A stretch of DNA of 64,000 bases, from positions 23,406-87,405 of the forward strand of contig JACPIO010000017.1 in NCBI GenBank assembly GCA_016188075.1, given 5' to 3'. Shown piece by piece: positions 3,370 through 31,214 of this stretch; the stretch's first letter is position 1, and each line of letters begins with the position of its first letter. Position numbers and translations under genes: made by a program. The notes under the pieces are model-generated. The model was not told the origin of the DNA. It saw only the letters and a program-made list of their open reading frames with translations, and ran no database searches. Source of the DNA: Candidatus Wolfebacteria bacterium (lineage in GTDB: Bacteria > Patescibacteriota > Minisyncoccia > UBA6257 > UBA9933).

Positions 3370-5070
3370 TTATTTAAACACCCTTTTCGTCTTCATATAC
3401 CACTTCTCTATAGCAGAGAATCGGTCCGAGGGCAAGGCAATAAAATTTTCTTCAAAACCTTGAAGTCCGCCGCGAATTACATAAAGGTAATTCGGCGAAA
3501 AAAGAAAGATGGCCGGAGCCTCGCCGGAAATAAGCGAGTTTAAACTGGCTAAATCTTTTCTCCGAGCCGTCTCGTCTTCGTCAGTCCGGATCGATTCCAA
3601 GAGCGCGTCGGCCAGCCGGCTTTCGTAAAGAGACAAATTCAGCCCGGGATAAAATCTTTCCGAAGAATGCCAAAAGGAAAAAGGATCGGGATTTTCGCCA
3701 AAAGTGTTTCCAAAAAGAATCATTTCATAGTCGCGAGCTTTGAGCACGCTGTTCGTAATTTCCTCGTGAGACTTCACCGAGACGTTAAGCTTCACGCCGA
3801 TTTTTAACCAGTCGGAAGCAATAAGATTCGCCGCCTCAACCAAAAAGGAATTGTCCGGCACAATTAGATTAAATTCCATTTTGGCAGTTTCTCCGGAACC
3901 GGCAATCAGCCGACCGCCCTTGTCAAGGAGCGGCCCGATTCTTTTTTCCATTATTCCCCCTTCACCCGGGCGCCAGCCGTTTTCCGTGAAAAGAGACAAC
4001 GCTTTGTCCGGCAAAATAAGAGCGGGCTCGCCGTAAGGCGCGGCCTTGTATCCCTCCATTCCGGGAAGAAGCGGCCCCTCTACTCGGAGGGCGTGATTCC
4101 CGAAAACTTTCTCAATAATTTTTTTGCGGTCAACGGCAAGCCCCAAGGCAATTCTTATATTTTTTTCTTGGAGAGCCGGAGCGGAGGCTAAATTAAAGAA
4201 AATGGCGTTGTAGCGGGGCATTCTCAAATCGTACGTCTGCTTCGCGACCGTGATTTTTTCCAAATCCGGCGCGTCGAGATTGCCCGCGCCGTCAACTATC
4301 CCCCTGTTTACCGCTTCAATCAATTCGTCCTTGCTGGGATAGAATTTGAAAATCAGATTATTCAAATACGGCCGCTCCCCTAAATAATTTTCGTTCCTTG
4401 TAAGCTGATATTGACTGATGAATCCGTCTCTTTTTTTCTCGATCGAAAGAAATTTAAACGGTCCGCTCGCGACCGGTTCCAGGTTAAAACTGGAAAGCCG
4501 GATATTGGCCGGCGGCAAAACCCCGAAGATATGCTTGGGAATCGGTCTCAAATCTTTCAAATTGTTTTTAAAGAAGGCGTAAGGAGAAGCTAATTTTAAT
4601 TTGAATTCCAATTCGCTTACTCGCTCGGTCTCCACCCCCTGCCAAGCGAGAAACAAGGGAGAACGAGTATCGGGATCCTGAATCAGATTGATCGTAAAAA
4701 TAACGTCATCGCTCGTAATCTCCACTCCATCATCCCAACGGGCATCGGGCTTAAGCCGGAGATTCCAAGATTTACCCTTGTCGTTCACCTTATAACTCTC
4801 CGCCAAATCCAAAACGTCGCTGAATAAAATTTCCGTCAAATCCCTATCCGGATCGTTCTCGCCCACCAAGACCGGATTCACAAAACTTAATTGCCCGACT
4901 ACGCCTTCGCGGTATTCGCCGCCCAAAGCCGGAATTTCTTTTGTTTTCTCGCCGATAAAATTCGCGCCAATAAAAATTCCGCTTACCGCGAAAACCAAAA
5001 GGCTGGAAGCAAAAATCAACCTCTCAAGGCGCGAAAAAATTTTCCAGATTTTAAGGATTCCCGAAAACAA
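3370..5070 (-). CDS. ABC transporter substrate-binding protein, family 5 (oligopeptide/dipeptide type)
   Basis: 566 aa; N-terminal signal/TM, SBP_bac_5-like body (…DVIFTINLIQDPDTRSPLFLAWQGVE…). Confidence 0.75.
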   Translation of the reverse strand: MFSGILKIWKIFSRLERLIFASSLLVFAVSGIFIGANFIGEKTKEIPALGGEYREGVVGQLSFVNPVLVGENDPDRDLTEILFSDVLDLAESYKVNDKGKSWNLRLKPDARWDDGVEITSDDVIFTINLIQDPDTRSPLFLAWQGVETERVSELEFKLKLASPYAFFKNNLKDLRPIPKHIFGVLPPANIRLSSFNLEPVASGPFKFLSIEKKRDGFISQYQLTRNENYLGERPYLNNLIFKFYPSKDELIEAVNRGIVDGAGNLDAPDLEKITVAKQTYDLRMPRYNAIFFNLASAPALQEKNIRIALGLAVDRKKIIEKVFGNHALRVEGPLLPGMEGYKAAPYGEPALILPDKALSLFTENGWRPGEGGIMEKRIGPLLDKGGRLIAGSGETAKMEFNLIVPDNSFLVEAANLIASDWLKIGVKLNVSVKSHEEITNSVLKARDYEMILFGNTFGENPDPFSFWHSSERFYPGLNLSLYESRLADALLESIRTDEDETARRKDLASLNSLISGEAPAIFLFSPNYLYVIRGGLQGFEENFIALPSDRFSAIEKWYMKTKRVFK

Positions 5071-5956: not shown

Positions 5957-6646
5957 ATGATACTTCAAAGCTGGGCAGAAGTTACAAGCACTAACCTTCA
6001 GAGAGTCTGGGCAGGGGTTTTAGAAACACTGCCTTTAATTATCGGGGCCATTGTCGTAATTATCGTCGGACTGGTGGTTGCCTCTCTTATTAAATGGCTG
6101 GTCGAGAGCCTGATTAAAGGAATCAAGCTTGACGTTCTCCTTGAAAAATTGGGGCTCACAACCTATTTAAGCCGGGCAGGGCTAAACCTGGACTCGGGGC
6201 GATTTTTCGGCCTTTTGGTTTACTGGTTTTTAGTTATTGTTTTCGTATTGGCCGCGTCCGACATTCTGCATCTCTGGGGCTTATCAATCTTCTTGAGCAA
6301 TGTTTTGGCCTATGTCCCCAACGTAATCGCCGCCATGCTGATGATCCTCGCGGCGGTGGTGGCGGCCAAATTCCTGAAGTCGTTAGTCGGCGCTTCCATT
6401 ATGAGCGCCAAACTTCACGCTTCAAGATTCTTAGGCACTTTCACCTGGTGGGCGGTTGTCATTTTCGGATTACTCGCGGCGCTCTATCAGCTTTTGGGTA
6501 ATTCCGCCACTACCCTAATAAATACCCTGGTTACGGGCGTCATCGCGATGATTGCTCTGGCCGGCGGTATCGCCTTTGGTTTGGGCGGCAAAGAATACGC
6601 GGCGCATCTCTTGGAAAAGCTAAGGGAGCACACCGAAGAAGAATAA
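5957..6646 (+). CDS. hypothetical polytopic membrane protein (conserved TM-helix repeat)
   Basis: 229 aa, several TM helices, no catalytic motif recognised. Confidence 0.55.
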   Translation: MILQSWAEVTSTNLQRVWAGVLETLPLIIGAIVVIIVGLVVASLIKWLVESLIKGIKLDVLLEKLGLTTYLSRAGLNLDSGRFFGLLVYWFLVIVFVLAASDILHLWGLSIFLSNVLAYVPNVIAAMLMILAAVVAAKFLKSLVGASIMSAKLHASRFLGTFTWWAVVIFGLLAALYQLLGNSATTLINTLVTGVIAMIALAGGIAFGLGGKEYAAHLLEKLREHTEEE

Positions 6647-7953: not shown

Positions 7954-10460
7954 TGATTATGGAAAATCAAAAAAATCAGCGCGTCGAAAAACGCGAAATC
8001 ACGGAAGAATTGAAAGAATCCTATTTGAACTACGCGATGTCCGTTATCGTCTCGCGCGCTCTGCCGGACGTCCGGGACGGCTTAAAGCCGGTGCAGCGCC
8101 GAATTCTCTGGACAATGTGGGACGACGGCTTAACCCACAGCGCCAAATTTCGGAAATCAGCTAACGTAGTCGGGGCGGTTTTGGGCCGTTACCACCCGCA
8201 CGGCGATGCGGCAGTTTACGACGCTCTGGCCCGCATGGCCCAAGACTTTTCGCTGCGGTATCCTTTAGTTGACGGTCAGGGTAATTGGGGCAGCGTTGAC
8301 GGGGACAATCAGGCGGCCATGCGTTACACGGAGGCAAGACTTTCCAAGATTGCCGAGGAAACGCTTTTCGATATCGAAAAGGAAACTGTTGATTGGCAGC
8401 CGAATTATGACGCCACGCGCCAGGAACCAAAAGTTTTACCGGCCAAACTTCCCAGTCTTCTTTTAAACGGCACAATGGGCATTGCCGTGGGCATGGCCAC
8501 GAACATCCCTCCACATAACTTGGGAGAAGTCATTGATGCCGCCGACCACCTAATCGTGAATCCCAAAGCAACGACCGAGGATTTGATGAATCACATCCAA
8601 GGCCCGGATTTCCCGACCGGCGGGATTATTTACAATAAAAAAGCCATTGTCGAAGCTTATATTTCCGGCCGCGGCCCCATCACCTGCCGAGCCAAATCCG
8701 AAATCGAAGAGCGCAAAGCCGGACAATTCAATATCGTAGTTACGGAAATCCCCTATCAAATCAATAAATCCGAACTTTTAATCAAAATCGCCGAGCTCGT
8801 TAACGAGAAAAAAATTGAAGGCATCCGCGACCTTCGAGATGAAAGCGACAGAGACGGAATGAGGATTGTGATTGAACTCAAGACCGACGCGGTGCCGCAG
8901 AAAATTTTAAATCAGCTTTATAAACACACAGACCTCCAAAAAGATTTTCATTTGAATATGATTGCTTTGGTTCGGGGTATCGAACCCCAACTTTTATCCT
9001 TGAAAGAAATTTTGGCCGCCTACCTCGAACACCGAAGAGTGGTGGTGGAAAAACGAACCCGGTTCGAACTTCAGAAAGCCAAAGAAAGGGCTCATATTCT
9101 CGAAGGTTTGTCCCGTGCGCTTTCGGTCATTGATAAAATCATCGCCACCATCAAAAAATCAAAAGACCGGGACGAGGCGCGGGTCAATTTGGTAAAAAAT
9201 TTCAAACTGACGGAAATCCAGGCAACGGCGATTTTGGAGATGCGGCTTCAGACTTTAGCGGCTTTGGAACGCCAGAAAATCGAGGACGAACTCGAAGAAA
9301 AAAGAAAATTGATTATCGAGCTCGAAGCCATTCTCAAAAGCCCGGAGAAAATTCAAAAAATCATAAAAAACGAACTTCAGGAATTGAAAAAAAATTACGG
9401 CGACGAACGCCGAACCCAAGTGGTCGCAGGCGGCCTTCAAGAATTCAAACAGGAAGATTTAGTACCTCAAGAAGAAACCATTATTACTTTCTCGGAAGAC
9501 GGCTACGTGAAACGACTCCCGCCCTCAAGCTTTAAAACGCAGAAACGCGGCGGCAAGGGATTAATTGGTCAGGAAATGAACGAGGAAGACCTTTTGGCGC
9601 ATTTCATTTCCGCCGATACCCACGACAATATTTTATTTTTTACCACCCGGGGCCGGGCCTTTCAGACCAAAGTCTATGAAATACCGGTCGGCAGCCGCAC
9701 TGCCAAGGGAAAACTGATTCAGAATTTTTTGGAAATCCCCGCGGAGGAAACCGTGAGCGCCATTGTTACCTACGCGGCTCACAGACTACAGACTACCGAC
9801 TACAGTAAAAATCAGAAAGCCGTAGACCGTAGTCTGTCGACGCTAGACAATTACTTAGTAATGGCGACTAAAAATGGCTTGATAAAAAAGACTTCGCTCG
9901 CGGATTTTTCTAATGTTCGTCGGAGCGGCATTCTGGCTATGAAACTTCAAAACGACGACCAGCTTAAATGGGCAAAACTTTCTTCGGGCAAAGATGAAAT
10001 CATTTTGGCAACTGGCCGCGGACAAGCCATCAGATTCAAAGAAGCCGATCTCCGGGCCATGGGCAGGACTGCCTCCGGGGTCAAAGCCATAAGGCTAAAG
10101 AGTGGTGATTTTGTCGCTGGACTTGATATAATTAAGACAAGTTCCAAATTACCAATTACCAATTACAAATTACTTATTGTGACCGAAAATGGGTTTGCCA
10201 AACAGACTTCTTTGAAAGATTACAAAATTCAGAAACGCGGGGGCGGCGGCATAAAAACCGCTAAGGTTAATCAAAAAACCGGGCGCGTGATCGCGAGTCA
10301 AATTCTCGAAAATCAGGAAGACTTACTTGCGATCTCAACCAAAGGACAATTGATTCGAACGAAAATCGCGAGTATTCGCTTAGCGGGCCGCGCCACCTCC
10401 GGAGTGCGCATTATGAAATTAAAAGAAGGAGATAAAGTTGCCGGAATAGTATGTCTTTAA
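7953..10460 (+). CDS. gyrA: DNA gyrase subunit A
   Basis: 835 aa; [25 protein letters not shown], active-site region and C-terminal beta-pinwheel repeats. Carries in-frame low-complexity insertions at 9781-9850 and 10141-10175. Confidence 0.95.
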
Positions 10461-26819: not shown

Positions 26820-26892
26820 AAGGATTGTTTCTTCAATTTTTTATCCTTCTTTTTCTTTATCTTCCTTGTTTTCTCCGGCAGGGGGCGCGGAC

Positions 26893-27031
26893 GGATTTTG
26901 CCACGAGGCAAAATCGCAGCTTGGCCGCCCCGATTTTAATCGGGGCGAGCCTCGCCTGCGACTGGATTTATCCATGAAGCATAGTCGCAGGCGGGCCGCC
27001 CACTATAACGGGCGAGCCTCGCCTGCGGGCT
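26893..27031. repeat. GC-rich palindromic repeat units (…ccgccccgattttaatcggggcgagcctcgcc…)
   Basis: Units at 26893-26950 and 26975-27031 in the rel-topA intergenic region/topA tail; related to 18128-18165; a further partial unit at 27084-27110. Confidence 0.55.
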
Positions 27032-29102
27032 CATCGCTTTTTCTCTCTTTTGCATTAGAATTTTCGGTTACTTGAGGATTGACCCACGAGGCATAATCGC
27101 AGGCGGGATATTTTGAACAGCCGTAGAAAAAACGGCCGCGCTTGGTGCGTTTGCGAACCACTTCACCCTCTGCGCATTTCGGACATTTCATTTTAACGCC
27201 GTTCTCGTCCATCACCACATTTTTTATCGGCTTGGCGTTTTTGCAATCCGGAAAACCCGAGCAAGCCATGAATTTTCCGAAACGGCCGTATTTTATAATC
27301 ATCGGCTTGCCGCATTTTTCGCAATCCTCATCGGTCTTTTCTTCTATGGGTTTTTGCTTTTCCACTTCAAGATATTTTTTTTCCAAATTAACCGAAAACG
27401 GCTCATAAAATTTCCGGATGACATTTTGCCATTTTTCGGCGCCGATCGCGATTTCGTCCAATTCTTCTTCCATCCGGGCCGTAAACTGGATATCGACAAT
27501 TGTCGGGAAATGCTCGGTCAATATTTTATTTACGGCGCAGCCGATTTCGGTTGGCGCGAAACGCCGGTCTTCATTTTTAAGAACGTAATTTCTTTCCTGA
27601 ATCACCGAGATGGTCGGCGCGTAGGTGGAGGGCCGGCCGATGCCGTATTCTTCGAGCGTTTTAATAAGACTGGCTTCGTTGTAGCGCGGAGGCGGTTCGG
27701 TAAAATGCTGAGATGGCAAAACCTCAAGCAGTTTCAATTCTTCTTTTTCCGCGAGCGCCGGCAGTTCTTTTTCCTCGAATTGCGTGGGCCAAATTTTCAA
27801 AAACCCGTCAAATTTTAGAATACTGCCGGTGGTAATTAGTAAATAGTAATTAGCAATTAACGAGTTTTTGGCTTCTATCTCCACCCTTGTGGAGTCAAAA
27901 ATTGCTTGGGGCAGCTGCGAGGCGATAAAACGTCTCCAAATCAATTCGTAAAGTCTTTTTTCTTGATTATTTTCTCCCTGAAATTTTTCCGGAGCAAAGT
28001 CCGGCCGCGTGGGCCGAATAGCCTCATGCGCTTCTTGCGCCAAACGCGACTTTGTTTTAAAAAAGCGCGGGGCTTGACTCGCGTATTCTTTTCCCAATTT
28101 TTTTTCAATCCAGCTTTTAGCGGCCAGAACGGATTCGCGGGAAAGATTCACCGAGTCTGTCCGCATATAAGTGATTAAGCCGTTTTCGTAAAGACTCTGG
28201 GCGAACCGCATTGTTTGCTTAGCCGAACAGCGGAGGCGGCGAGACGCTTCCTGCTGAAGAGTCGATGTGGTAAAAGGCGGTAAGGGATTTCTTTTTAACT
28301 CTTTCTTTTCAATTTTGGAAACTCTAAAATCGCATTGCTTCAAATCAATGGCTATTTTATCCGCCTCCTCTTTTGTTTTAATTCCCAGCTTCGGAACAAC
28401 TTCGCCGTTTATTTTATGAAGCAGCGCAGTAAATTTATTTTCCGCGCCTGCCCCGAGTTTTACCGAGGGGTCGTTCCGCGCTGACTTCCGCGTTATTCCG
28501 CGCGATTGAAGCAGAGCTTCAATCGACCAGTATTCCTCCGGTTTGAAATTTTCAATCTCTTCTTCTCTTTCCGCAATCAAACGAAGCGCCACTGACTGCA
28601 CTCGGCCGGCCGAAAGCCGTCTCATCACCTTTTCCCACAAAAATGGCGAGAGTTTGTATCCCACCAAACGATCCAAAACGCGGCGCGCCTGTTGGGCGTC
28701 CACCAAACTCATATTAACTCCGCGAGGATTTTTTAAAGCTTCCTCAATGGCGGACTTGGTAATTTCGTGAAAAACGATTCTTTGGACCTTTGCCGTCCCC
28801 TCCTCATTTAATCCGAGCGCCTGGATTAAGTGATAGGCAATGGCTTCTCCTTCTCTGTCTTCGTCCGTTGCCATGATGACGGCATCGGCTTTTTCCGCTT
28901 CTTTTTTCAGCTGATTGACGCGCTTTTTGGACCTAATCGGAATGATATAGTGGGGTTCGAAATTTTTCTCAACATCAATTCCGATCTTGCTTTTCGGTAG
29001 ATCGCGAATATGACCCATGGTCGCAAGAACTTCATATTCTTTCCCAAGAAACCCTTTTAAGGTTTTTGATTTAGTTGGACTTTCCACTAAAATTAGTTTC
29101 AT
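27003..29102 (-). CDS. topA: DNA topoisomerase I
   Basis: 699 aa; TOPRIM N-terminus (MKLILVESPTKSKTLKGFLG...GHIRDLP) and C-terminal C4 zinc ribbons. In-frame insertion IANYYLLIT encoded by the TAATTAC repeat at 27831-27864. The 3' end runs into the GC-rich repeat, so the exact stop is uncertain. Confidence 0.9.
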   Translation of the reverse strand: MKLILVESPTKSKTLKGFLGKEYEVLATMGHIRDLPKSKIGIDVEKNFEPHYIIPIRSKKRVNQLKKEAEKADAVIMATDEDREGEAIAYHLIQALGLNEEGTAKVQRIVFHEITKSAIEEALKNPRGVNMSLVDAQQARRVLDRLVGYKLSPFLWEKVMRRLSAGRVQSVALRLIAEREEEIENFKPEEYWSIEALLQSRGITRKSARNDPSVKLGAGAENKFTALLHKINGEVVPKLGIKTKEEADKIAIDLKQCDFRVSKIEKKELKRNPLPPFTTSTLQQEASRRLRCSAKQTMRFAQSLYENGLITYMRTDSVNLSRESVLAAKSWIEKKLGKEYASQAPRFFKTKSRLAQEAHEAIRPTRPDFAPEKFQGENNQEKRLYELIWRRFIASQLPQAIFDSTRVEIEAKNSLIANYYLLITTGSILKFDGFLKIWPTQFEEKELPALAEKEELKLLEVLPSQHFTEPPPRYNEASLIKTLEEYGIGRPSTYAPTISVIQERNYVLKNEDRRFAPTEIGCAVNKILTEHFPTIVDIQFTARMEEELDEIAIGAEKWQNVIRKFYEPFSVNLEKKYLEVEKQKPIEEKTDEDCEKCGKPMIIKYGRFGKFMACSGFPDCKNAKPIKNVVMDENGVKMKCPKCAEGEVVRKRTKRGRFFYGCSKYPACDYASWVNPQVTENSNAKERKSDEPAGEARPL

Positions 29103-29114
29103 ATTCTATTTCTA

Positions 29115-30230
29115 TTATATAGAGATATTATATTTATAAATACCAGATTTCGAAGCTTGATGTTGAATGCTATTCCAATTTCGATTAGGCAACATTGACA
29201 AAATCTCGGTTTTGGATAAGAGGGGATAAAATTGTTTAATAACTTGTTTTTCCTTTTGCGAATAATTTTTTCTATATTTCATTTCAATTTTTATACACCG
29301 TTTTGCCGCCTGAAATTTTCTTTCTATATATAAATAAGCATTGGTATAGAGATAACCTAAGAGAGTTTTAGCAGAATTACACCGATAAGCAATGTGGCAT
29401 AAATTATACTTCCCGTCTTTAGATATAGATTTTGTAACAGTAGAGTAAATATTAAATTTTTTAAGAAAATAGTTTCGGATAAAAGTTACAGTATTTTCTC
29501 CGCCACAAATACTTAAGTTGGGATAGCCTAGTTTATCAATCGAAATGCCCCCATCTCCATCTACAATGCCGCGAATAAAATGTCTAACATATTTTCCGGG
29601 GATATCTGGAATTTTTTCGCGAAGGCTTTTTTGATAAGAAATTTTAAGAATTTTTAAATCATCAACAATTTTTTGGCTGGTAATACATAAATAGGCCGCA
29701 CTTTTAACTAAAGATATTTTATGTTGAGAAGAAAGTTCCCTTTTTATTTTTTCTAAAATATCGACATCTCGTTTTTGAACACCAAATTTCAAAGCATCGC
29801 TATATCCCTCATGCGTTCCTCTAGTAATACAGCCATCAGCCAAGGTAAAACCAAGAACATAAGCCATATTGGGCGACCACTTTTGGAAATAAGATTCATT
29901 GACGTTTATTTTTGGTTTATTAGTACTCCGTTTCAATCCCAATCTCTCTCCTTGAGCTAAGATAGCCGACCACGATCTTTTGGGTAAAAAATTTAACAAT
30001 TCGCCCTCGGTAGAATCTTTAAAATATTTTTTAAGTATTTCATTTTCTTCTCGCTGCCATAATTTTGCGGATGACAAACTAAGACTTAGGGCTTTTGCGA
30101 CTATCGTATCCCTGGTACGCCCAGGGAATTTTTCTGCTATATCTTTGACCCTGAATTTTGGATATAAGGCTATTAAGAGCTCGACTTCTTTATCAGACCA
30201 ATAATGATATTTAATACTTCTATTACCCAT
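29115..30230 (-). CDS. free-standing LAGLIDADG-family homing endonuclease
   Basis: 371 aa; two LAGLIDADG motifs (LGFTLADGC and IRGIVDGDGGIS) with flanking helical W..E..L..Y repeat modules. Very AT-rich gene between topA and dprA. Confidence 0.75.
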   Translation of the reverse strand: MGNRSIKYHYWSDKEVELLIALYPKFRVKDIAEKFPGRTRDTIVAKALSLSLSSAKLWQREENEILKKYFKDSTEGELLNFLPKRSWSAILAQGERLGLKRSTNKPKINVNESYFQKWSPNMAYVLGFTLADGCITRGTHEGYSDALKFGVQKRDVDILEKIKRELSSQHKISLVKSAAYLCITSQKIVDDLKILKISYQKSLREKIPDIPGKYVRHFIRGIVDGDGGISIDKLGYPNLSICGGENTVTFIRNYFLKKFNIYSTVTKSISKDGKYNLCHIAYRCNSAKTLLGYLYTNAYLYIERKFQAAKRCIKIEMKYRKNYSQKEKQVIKQFYPLLSKTEILSMLPNRNWNSIQHQASKSGIYKYNISI

Positions 30231-30329
30231 CTTTACATTTTAGTATATTTTGCGGGAAATTCAACGATAACGAGATTCATAAAACATAAAACATTTGCGC
30301 TTCATGCTTTATGCTTCATGATTTGTGAA

Positions 30330-31214
30330 TCATATCGTATATCCTCTTTCCGACTCCTTTATAAAATTATTGATTACCAGCATCGCGACTGTTTGACTTA
30401 CGACTTGCGGTTCCAGTTTAGTGAGCTCAATAATTTTGTCAATTCGAACCGGCTCCCCCGCCCCTTCAATAACTCTTAAAACCATTAATTGTTTCTCGTC
30501 TTTAATTTTTTGTGATTTCGTATTTTCGTATATTCGTACCTTTTCGTATTTCGTAGCCAGATTGAGGTCTTCCATTATATCTTCCGCCGAAGCAACCAAT
30601 CTCGCCCCGTCCCTGATTAAAGCGTGCGATCCCTTATAGTTGGGGTGCTCGACCGGTCCGGGAAAAACAAAAACTTCGCGACCCTGTTCAGCCGCGAGCC
30701 GCGCCGTAACCAAAGCGCCAGACTCCCTGGGAGCTTCGATTATAATGGCGGCCAAAGAAAGACCGCTTACGATTCTATTTCGTTCAAGAAATCGGTGCGG
30801 CAGGACCGGCGTCCCCGGAGAATATTCCGAGATAATCGCTCCGCCGGCTTGGAGAATCTGATTGGCTAAATTTTCATTCTGCTCAGGATAAATAGAATCG
30901 AGGCCGTTTCCAAGAACGGCAATGGTCGGCGATCCGCCGCGCAAACTGCCTTGGTGAGCCGCGGTGTCAATACCCATCGCCAAACCGCTTACGACAACGA
31001 GTCCCCGGCGCGACAAATCTTCGGCTAATCGTTTGGCCATATTTTTTCCGGCTTCGGTGGCTTTTCTCGTTCCCACAATGGCAACGCGCGGAATGTCGTA
31101 AGCGGGCAATTTCCCCAAAAAATAGAGCCCAGACGGCGCGCCTCGTATTTCCGAAAGCAAGGCCGGATAGCGGCTATCGCCCCTCTCTAAAAAATTTATT
31201 TCCGCTTTTGACAT
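30330..31214 (-). CDS. dprA: DNA processing protein DprA (Smf)
   Basis: 294 aa; ...VAIVGTRKATEAGKNMAKRLAEDLSRRGLVVVSGLAMGIDTAAHQGSL... Carries an in-frame (ttcgta)n insertion at 30521-30570. Confidence 0.85.
   Translation of the reverse strand: MSKAEINFLERGDSRYPALLSEIRGAPSGLYFLGKLPAYDIPRVAIVGTRKATEAGKNMAKRLAEDLSRRGLVVVSGLAMGIDTAAHQGSLRGGSPTIAVLGNGLDSIYPEQNENLANQILQAGGAIISEYSPGTPVLPHRFLERNRIVSGLSLAAIIIEAPRESGALVTARLAAEQGREVFVFPGPVEHPNYKGSHALIRDGARLVASAEDIMEDLNLATKYEKVRIYENTKSQKIKDEKQLMVLRVIEGAGEPVRIDKIIELTKLEPQVVSQTVAMLVINNFIKESERGYTI

Follow-up and report, generated by a model that had tools for sequence, protein, structure and literature searches.

The stretch of Candidatus Wolfebacteria DNA analysed here, 64,000 nucleotides (nt) long and referred to below as the window, carries three adjacent genes on its minus strand: dprA, a gene for a protein of 371 amino acids (aa) with two LAGLIDADG motifs, and topA. 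The middle gene, termed LAG in the following, encodes a predicted homing endonuclease and is treated here as the center of a putative cassette that has entered the topA gene itself. The DNA is chromosomal, and an identical protein is annotated as "hypothetical protein" in a Candidatus Wolfebacteria genome of the Patescibacteria, or Candidate Phyla Radiation (CPR). The features of the locus, with the evidence used to place them, are as follows.

27003..29102 (-): topA (Pfam Topoisom_bac, 4.6e-127; also Toprim and Zn_ribbon_Top1).
27003..29007 (-): the rest of topA beyond its 5' tract, of apparent resident (Wolfebacteria) ancestry (identity to LAG-free relatives).
29008..29102 (-): 5' tract of the functional topA (nt 1 to ~95), a putative replacement linked to the cassette (identity, breakpoint scan).
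29062..29084 (-): position in the functional topA matching the presumptive endonuclease target, nt 19-41, E7-S-P-T-K-S-K-T14 of the TOPRIM motif (junction at nt 30 and flanking recoding).
29115..30230 (-): LAG, a LAGLIDADG homing endonuclease gene, single chain, two domains, 371 aa (profiles, model, homologs).
29130..29267 (-): third Myb/SANT-like module, C-terminal, aa 322-367 (repeat alignment, model).
29340..29879 (-): LAGLIDADG core, with domain 1 at aa ~118-195 (LGFTLADG, D132) and domain 2 at aa ~210-297 (RGIVDGDG, D226) (model, Foldseek, homologs).
29925..30206 (-): N-terminal pair of Myb/SANT-like three-helix modules, aa 9-55 and 57-102 (repeat alignment, model, profiles).
30231..30250 (-): putative cassette left end, a 20-nt spacer with a -10-like TAAAAT at 30237..30242, 6 nt before the LAG ATG (promoter scan).
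30251..30280 (-): apparent displaced resident-type topA 5' end, nt 1-30, ATGAATCTCGTTATCGTTGAATTTCCCGCA, MNLVIVEFPA (alignment to empty-site relatives).
30330..31214 (-): dprA, the upstream neighbor, outside the element (Pfam DNA_processg_A, 8e-75).

LAG opens with an ATG and contains the motifs LGFTLADGC (D132-G133) and IRGIVDGDGG (D224-G225-D226-G227). An initial annotation of this DNA, made from the sequence letters, had described a 371-aa open reading frame (ORF) with two LAGLIDADG motifs, and its coordinates, start and both motifs were confirmed. The same annotation placed the ORF in a 1.2-kb gap between two conserved genes on the same strand. Both genes are indeed present, 1227 nt apart, and dprA is separated from the LAG ORF by 99 bp, but the gap is not intergenic, the junction being internal to the coding part of topA, past codon 10. 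Upstream of LAG there is a second copy of the topA start, the 30-nt remnant listed above, which runs on as a 15-codon ORF to a TAA stop at 30233. This remnant agrees at 19 of 21 positions with the topA starts (MNLVIVE...) of the LAG-free Wolfebacteria loci L088 and L093, compared with 14 of 21 for the functional copy of its own genome, and it is a zero-mismatch, unique match to the naive-type topA pattern, which gave 0 matches in 100 shuffles. Seven relatives (L007, L010, L012, L019, L023, L026 and L027) have copies of the topA start that likewise end after codon 10 (VESPT, ~nt 30) and precede the LAG start by ~48-51 nt, with shorter or weaker forms in L004, L011, L015 and L016; altogether, remnants ending after codon 10 occur in at least 12 LAG-bearing loci other than the window. 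In L018 and in protein P0003, the remnant is in frame with the endonuclease (MIIVEPPT... and MRLVIVENPT...). Among nine remnant copies, there are 3, 1 and 6 variable sites at codon positions 1, 2 and 3, respectively (entropy 2.7, 0.5 and 8.3), whereas the peptide M-x-L-V-I-V-E is retained. Due to this third-position bias, the remnants would appear to have diverged as functional coding DNA, which points to several independent insertions into topA genes that were already diverged from one another. To judge from these copies, the apparent intergenic position of LAG is the result of a duplicated topA 5' end, with the junction at topA nt 30.

The functional topA begins 12 nt past the LAG stop codon (ATGAAACTAATTTTAGTGGAA...), and its start is nearly identical to that of the LAG-bearing relative L001. 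Over topA codons 1-30, the window and L001 share 86% nt and 97% aa identity, versus 52-63% nt identity between the window and LAG-free relatives, and from about codon 31-45 onward the affinity flips to the LAG-free relatives. The breakpoint found by a maximum-association scan falls at topA nt 90-100 (permutation p<=0.002; Fisher p 4e-6 to 2e-9). On the 5' side of it, the window goes with L001 at 24-34 informative sites and with an empty-site relative at 2-4, while on the 3' side the corresponding counts are 172-231 and 246-280. The same pattern is evident from the protein: the best matches to TopA residues 1-30 come from LAG-bearing loci (L001 97%, L112 83%, L004 73%), whereas over residues 31-699 identity is 72-75% with LAG-free relatives versus 68% with L001, all five of the best matches being LAG-free. 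When all loci are considered, pairs of LAG-bearing loci share the 5' tract to a greater extent than mixed pairs of LAG-bearing and LAG-free loci at matched divergence (permutation p=0.0045). Judging by these site patterns, topA nt 1 to ~95 has a history in common with LAG and not with the remainder of topA, which we read as co-conversion of flanking host sequence.

Near the junction, the functional copies also differ from naive alleles in a consistent manner. The Ser8 codon is AGY in all 23 cassette-linked functional topA copies, whereas TCN is used by 22 of the 33 naive alleles (p=1e-7); a G>T change at nt 34 (Ala12Ser, p=1.8e-5) and Ile5Leu are cassette-associated as well. Ser8 codons of the remnants are mixed like those of naive alleles, with about 6 of 12 being TCN-type if, as we read them, TTT in the window and CCG in L018 are counted as derived from TCN by a single mutation. 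The sites that set cassette-linked copies apart from naive alleles, at nt 22-23 and nt 34, flank nt 30 and therefore fit a ~22-bp site centered on the junction. From this we infer the target to be a LAGLIDADG site of that length centered on nt 30, within the TOPRIM codons E-S-P-T-K-A-K-T, and the equivalent site of the window is presumably a recoded, cleavage-resistant form. There is no universal "immunity" substitution, Ser12 being enriched and not fixed.

The opposite end of topA in the window is unusual as well. Past the topA stop codon at 27003, the region 26850-27107 (-) holds the C-terminal segment of topA (PACDYASWVNP...PAGEARPL*), followed by two degenerate tandem copies of it (ACDYASWINPVAGEARPD and CDFASWQNPSAPPAGENKEDKEKEG), with a 32-nt repeat family at 27076-27107, 26964-26995 and 26893-26924 and 18 nt repeated exactly between 27010-27027 and 26943-26960. 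The topA 3' end is single copy in all 8 relatives checked. By their sequence, the extra copies look like displaced alternative 3' ends, in which case the window topA would have duplicated ends on both sides.

The LAG family yielded 294 homolog matches, and the best 120 are full length, with E<1e-117 and 52-75% identity; the family comprises at least 120 clusters at 90% identity. Host labels include Wolfebacteria, Nealsonbacteria, Staskawiczbacteria, Doudnabacteria and others. In all 27 close-relative loci having enough downstream sequence, topA is located directly downstream of LAG on the same strand, at a gap of about -32 to +63 nt and with or without dprA. About two thirds of the LAG-bearing loci have the latter no more than ~850 nt upstream, usually within ~170 nt, while in the remaining third it either went undetected in the flank that was fetched or is 2-3 kb distant. 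Since topA is beside LAG in every case and dprA is variable, the conserved partner of LAG, as far as these loci indicate, is topA and not the dprA-topA gap. In most of 80 LAG-free loci, dprA is directly upstream of topA, and its position next to LAG probably reflects nothing more than this common ancestral arrangement. LAG carriers are sparse, amounting to ~23 GTDB species representatives and only 1 of 80 metagenomic TopA relatives. Moreover, ~55 TopA clusters (67-75% identity to the window TopA) are closer to the window than is the TopA of the nearest LAG-bearing relative (66-67%). Inspection of four Wolfebacteria lineages whose TopA is 71-72% identical to the window TopA showed the dprA-topA-relA/spoT order of the window in all of them, with a dprA-topA spacer of 50-110 bp and no LAG. 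An uninterrupted topA-dprA locus, which the initial annotation had proposed to look for, accordingly exists in relatives closer than any carrier. Both occupied and empty alleles are found at one precise site, together with co-conversion of flanking sequence, as expected of homing elements. Similarly, the imported 5' end is the functional one and groups with other carriers, while the native remnant groups with the host lineage, as expected of elements that replace gene ends.

The endonuclease assignment is marginal in Pfam, where LAGLIDADG_3 scores 23.5 bits against a cutoff of 22.5 and covers the second domain only (aa 214-279). The profile search advised in the initial annotation therefore gives a match above cutoff, and PHROG 4645 ("endonuclease") matches aa 44-315 at 1.2e-37. 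Nothing meaningful was returned by NCBIfam for the LAG protein, a sequence search of PDB chains gave just chance beta-lactamase matches at E>1, and the PADLOC defense models gave zero matches. AlphaFold, given 30 homologs, returned a confident model (predicted local distance difference test score of 86.8), in which a tandem alpha-beta-beta-alpha-beta-beta-alpha core is preceded by two three-helix modules at the N terminus and followed by a single one at the C terminus. With this model, Foldseek retrieved I-OnuI, I-AniI, I-Tsp061I, PI-PfuI and the TliVMA endonuclease domain from the PDB at a probability of 1.00. Like LAG, these enzymes are two-domain single chains with one catalytic acidic residue per LAGLIDADG helix, but they are intron- or intein-encoded, share just 11-24% identity with LAG and align with its core only (~185-270 columns of the 371-residue query), leaving out the Myb/SANT-like modules at the ends. 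Enzymes of the single-chain LAGLIDADG class perform Mg-dependent cleavage of sites of ~18-22 bp, leaving 4-nt 3' overhangs.

The repeated helical modules at both ends, also noted in the initial annotation, are three mutually aligning internal repeats (aa 9-55, 57-102 and 322-367), each of which has three helices in the model, with the helices of the N-terminal pair spanning residues 13-49 and 60-96. They have a weak profile match to Myb_DNA-binding (E=0.0088), match phrog_323 ("transcriptional regulator", a D5-like regulator) in 3 stretches and also match the N-terminal part of phrog_1891, a phage family of "HNH endonuclease". We regard them as putative accessory DNA-binding domains, a pattern that is usual on free-standing endonucleases. 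The C-terminal module is missing from a ~325-aa subfamily, and 26 of the 120 homologs are shorter than 340 aa. Among the 120 homologs, D132 is kept in all, D226 in 119 and the motif glycines in all, and the ratio of nonsynonymous to synonymous divergence (dN/dS) of LAG is 0.12-0.20. Because of these values, LAG is, on the sequence evidence, a maintained nuclease gene. The initial annotation had left open a "free-standing homing endonuclease gene or remnant", of which the first part stands and the second does not. In the comparison with L001, the first ~300 nt of LAG (window 29931-30230 versus L001 3954-4253), encoding the two N-terminal Myb-like modules, are 61-65% identical, while the LAG core and C-terminal parts are 79-87% and the adjoining topA tract 86% identical. 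The low identity of this LAG 5' part may reflect module exchange among the DNA-binding repeats.

Several signals suggest how the locus is expressed. In the window, a promoter scan found TTGAAT-16-TAAAAT at 30264..30237, with the -35-like TTGAAT (30259..30264) located inside remnant codons V6-E7. The 18-21 nt between remnant and LAG ATG contain an extended -10-like box. Of 20 loci, 12 have a -10-like hexamer 5-8 nt ahead of the LAG ATG, versus a background of 14% (p=3e-6), and where the remnant is full, 9 of 10 loci have one. The total count of promoter-like matches in the LAG region does not exceed chance, and the evidence for a promoter consequently lies in its conservation across loci. This conservation suggests a hybrid promoter, with a -35 element provided by host codons and a -10 element provided by the cassette, and a leaderless LAG transcript. 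Since topA directly follows or even overlaps LAG, there is no room for a topA promoter of its own, and topA is probably transcribed through LAG. Other left ends occur too. In L001, L013 and L021, and likewise in L022, L024 and L030, there is no recognizable remnant upstream of LAG and other left-end types are shared instead; one such type shares AAATCTATGAAAGAAAAATTAAGTAATCAT, whereas another has a TTGACA-N17-GATAAT promoter-like element. From these alignments, the cassette left end exists in several variants. In the dprA-topA spacers farther upstream (window 30281-30329, L088 ~4895-5000 and L093 ~4918-5000), short motifs follow one another in tandem and make up imperfect inverted repeats; the window has, for example, CATGAAGCATAAAGCATGAAGC...GTTTTATGTTTTATG, and L093 has GACTACTGAC.../...GTCAGAAGTCAG. 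Their sequence is lineage-specific and their layout similar, and they may form terminator or regulatory hairpins.

Based upon these features, we consider it likely that LAG belongs to a homing cassette inserted at topA codon 10/11, which brought along a recoded replacement for the topA 5' end. The mechanism that we propose is modeled on other homing endonucleases. The cassette would consist of a promoter-bearing left end, LAG itself, a small number of spacer bases and a topA first part of its own, and its fixed site would be between topA codons 10 and 11, in the TOPRIM motif VESPT^K. The endonuclease would cut naive topA alleles at the ~22-bp site centered on nt 30. Repair templated by an occupied allele would then employ resident nt 1-30 plus upstream DNA as the left arm and topA past the cut as the right arm, thereby copying in the cassette along with a short co-conversion tract, which in the window genome would amount to ~65 nt of flanking topA. 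Insertion would sever the resident topA start, leaving it upstream as the 30-nt remnant, while the imported 5' end would at once restore an intact essential gene. As the imported start departs from naive alleles near the junction, in the codon for Ser8 (AGY for TCN), at residue 12 (Ser for Ala) and at residue 5 (Leu for Ile), it would be protected from the enzyme and is presumed immune. The two 30-nt direct copies, in turn, would offer a route to precise cassette loss by recombination. We propose more tentatively, and at odds that we would place below even, that the cassette represents an active family of bacterial chromosomal elements invading the essential topA gene without intron or intein, equipped with a cleavage-immune start and a leaderless hybrid promoter and placing topA expression behind LAG.

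A number of observations weigh against this interpretation. The target site is deduced solely from the junction and the allele comparison, and cleavage of naive topA is proposed by analogy. Six of the 23 cassette-linked copies retain Ala12, and some naive alleles already carry AGY. Conservation of the remnants could derive in part from their use as a -35 element or short upstream ORF and not from fresh insertions. We found no near-identical pair of genomes differing solely by the cassette. A phage vector is unsupported, as the viral collections are without a close LAG relative: a phage genome collection contained distant relatives only, at <=32% identity, and IMG/VR gave <=34% identity for full-length matches and up to 42% over single-domain pieces. 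Furthermore, LAG distances correlate with TopA distances (Mantel r=0.51, p=1e-4), and the two means are equal (0.44 and 0.42, respectively); therefore, much of LAG inheritance would seem to be vertical, or transfer occurs mainly among relatives. Synonymous divergence (dS) in 5 of 7 genome pairs is 0.8-1.1 for LAG and 2.1 to saturated for the adjacent topA, a contrast of which only the direction was used, given saturation in several topA pairs and one LAG pair. By this measure LAG is younger than topA in several genome pairs, although the remaining 2 of 7 look co-inherited and the lower LAG dS may be partly a product of extreme AT bias.

The correlation with TopA is also an argument for viewing LAG as a domesticated LAGLIDADG and Myb-like DNA-binding protein, i.e., a vertically inherited operon partner of topA, such as a topA regulator or a supercoiling-linked factor, that was lost in many lineages and is not mobile. 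LAG is conserved to a similar degree as TopA (51-75% versus 47-67% identity) with near-identical mean distances, it is tightly coupled to or overlaps topA, its dN/dS is low, its helical repeats match a "transcriptional regulator" profile in phrog_323, and in L028 its ORF reads through into topA. We nonetheless consider this unlikely. Domesticated LAGLIDADG proteins commonly lose their catalytic Asp residues, and both are kept in essentially all 120 homologs. The presence of LAG is very patchy, with empty sites in closer relatives, and neither the remnant nor the mosaic topA 5' end is expected of a simple host gene, nor is a LAG dS below that of topA. Alternatively, the cassette might once have been mobile and now be an inactive or tolerated passenger, retained because topA expression makes anything other than a precise deletion costly, with the mosaicism arising from ordinary homologous recombination. 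The lack of room for a topA promoter behind LAG, which would render imprecise loss lethal, is compatible with such a passenger, as are the possible broken copies in L014 and L024. However, a passenger should gather active-site and frameshift mutations, whereas 119-120 of 120 homologs keep the motif residues under a low dN/dS, the L014 frameshift also hits topA and may be an assembly error, and the repeated identical junction, with remnants bearing synonymous-type differences, argues for repeated site-specific insertion. We therefore give this passenger scenario little credence. Lastly, LAG could be the endonuclease of an intron or intein whose host element escaped detection, given that Patescibacteria LAGLIDADG genes are best known from rRNA introns (PMC11270868) and that the nearest solved structures include intein endonuclease domains. 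This we consider highly improbable, as Rfam detected no intron RNA in 28800..30500 with gathering thresholds or at E<=1, Pfam detected no intein (Hint) domain, topA and dprA are complete at both sides, and LAG has its own start and stop with a complete topA start after it. The intron-borne reading was rejected on the Rfam result, and the statement of the initial annotation that LAG lies outside any intron or intein holds. A homing cassette inserted into topA thus remains the interpretation that we favor.

Base composition, which the initial annotation had emphasized, is indeed distinctive. GC along the LAG ORF is 0.29-0.35, compared with ~0.46-0.53 in topA and dprA; for the whole genes, LAG has a GC of 0.33 versus 0.46 for topA, and at third codon positions (GC3) the values are 0.26 and 0.49. 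However, LAG GC is below topA GC in every genome compared and follows host GC. Low GC is a trait of the LAG family, and as it accompanies LAG in every host, it is by itself no proof of recent arrival and was rejected as a stand-alone sign of recent transfer.

Individual loci exhibit further variations. At L028 (5971-9078), a single 1035-aa ORF takes in both an N-terminally shortened LAG and TopA, uninterrupted by a stop codon; as topA retains its own ATG there, this may be a lost stop codon, and we treat it as such rather than as an established fusion protein. L014 and L024 contain interrupted LAG ORFs, and with L014 also having a topA frameshift that may reflect assembly error, neither was counted as firm decay. 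L104 (2565-2942) is a LAG-free locus having a cassette-type topA start and a 500-bp dprA-topA gap. A decayed LAG was considered and rejected for this locus, as the gap holds an unrelated 125-aa ORF, possibly a four-helix-bundle protein as in 23S rRNA intervening sequences, and L104 may be a replaced or former cassette site. L004, the Nealsonbacteria locus that also has an upstream LAG, contains a second ORF of 224 aa with a faint LAGLIDADG_3 match just downstream of topA (8333-9007). Single-domain LAGLIDADG relatives, 40-47% identical to domain 1 and not in rRNA introns, are present in Moranbacteria- and Nomurabacteria-type genomes: in L032, L035 and L058, the LAG-like ORF (~6001-6375) has tRNA genes within ~25-300 nt on each side, and in L056 there is a tRNA gene ~80 nt upstream only. 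Their sequence suggests a second free-standing LAGLIDADG group in Patescibacteria. The empty-site Wolfebacteria do host other homing elements, as a ParA-like gene near topA in L093 (10632-12016) and L094 (9834-11218) has an intein bearing LAGLIDADG_3 within an 850-aa product.

The proposed cassette would have several implications. It would constitute a third means, beside introns and inteins, by which a homing endonuclease can get into an essential coding sequence and leave the host viable. The family is large and conserved, with its at least 120 clusters at 90% identity representing candidate meganucleases having an unusual three-module accessory architecture and a predicted TOPRIM-motif target. 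The mosaic topA provides direct sequence evidence of homologous recombination between diverged lineages of Patescibacteria, in which gene flow is difficult to study. On the practical side, the upstream topA-like start can mislead gene callers, as in the two called proteins beginning MIIVEPPT or MRLVIVENPT, and topA phylogenies can be skewed by the imported 5' tract. If the family is active as suggested above, topA expression behind a selfish gene would make the cassette hard to lose, and its spread would record homologous DNA exchange among uncultured Patescibacteria lineages.

When compared with known systems, a precedent from the same phylum and nuclease superfamily is found in the CPR rRNA genes, where LAGLIDADG endonucleases reside in 16S and 23S insertions, often in group I introns that are removed from the transcript, and where target-specific homing was inferred from conserved insertion sites (PMC11270868). 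That study makes no mention of free-standing or topoisomerase-associated LAGLIDADG genes, and we did not find a topA-associated LAGLIDADG element in CPR bacteria described in the literature, although our coverage was incomplete and its absence is unproven. The topA cassette differs in being located in a protein gene with no RNA element detected. The seg and mob endonucleases of T4-like phages perform "intronless homing" as free-standing genes that are present or absent between conserved genes (PMC2988022). They resemble the topA cassette in their location outside of introns and inteins, in double-strand-break repair with co-conversion and in their accessory DNA-binding modules, but they are GIY-YIG or HNH enzymes, are intergenic and often cut away from the insertion site, whereas LAG is a chromosomal LAGLIDADG gene with its junction inside the topA coding sequence at nt 30. 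In the case of mobE in Aeh1 nrdA and mobA in T4 gene 60/39, the host gene is split in two and no replacement end is provided (PMC2988022).

The closest parallels are to the mobile ORF elements (mORFs) of fungal mitochondria, described from Allomyces macrogynus atp6, from atp6, atp9, cox2 and nad3 of Glomus sp., from Rhizopus atp9 and from Mortierella cox2, in which a LAGLIDADG or GIY-YIG ORF brings a foreign C-terminal gene end and the native end is displaced downstream, where it groups with the host lineage (PMC3630166). Like the topA cassette, mORFs place an endonuclease ORF straight into a protein gene without intron or intein, with the foreign end being functional and the native end a remnant, and sometimes with the endonuclease ORF in frame with the host gene. 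Unlike mORFs, the topA cassette concerns an essential DNA topology gene, has a promoter apparently built in part from displaced host codons and encodes three Myb/SANT-like modules. Furthermore, mORFs affect the 3' (C-terminal) end of mitochondrial genes, whereas the topA cassette affects the 5' end, including the start codon, of a gene on a Patescibacteria chromosome. In this sense, the topA cassette would be a mirror image of the fungal mORFs, extending the strategy of coupling an endonuclease to a replacement gene end to a bacterial chromosome and to the 5' end of a gene.

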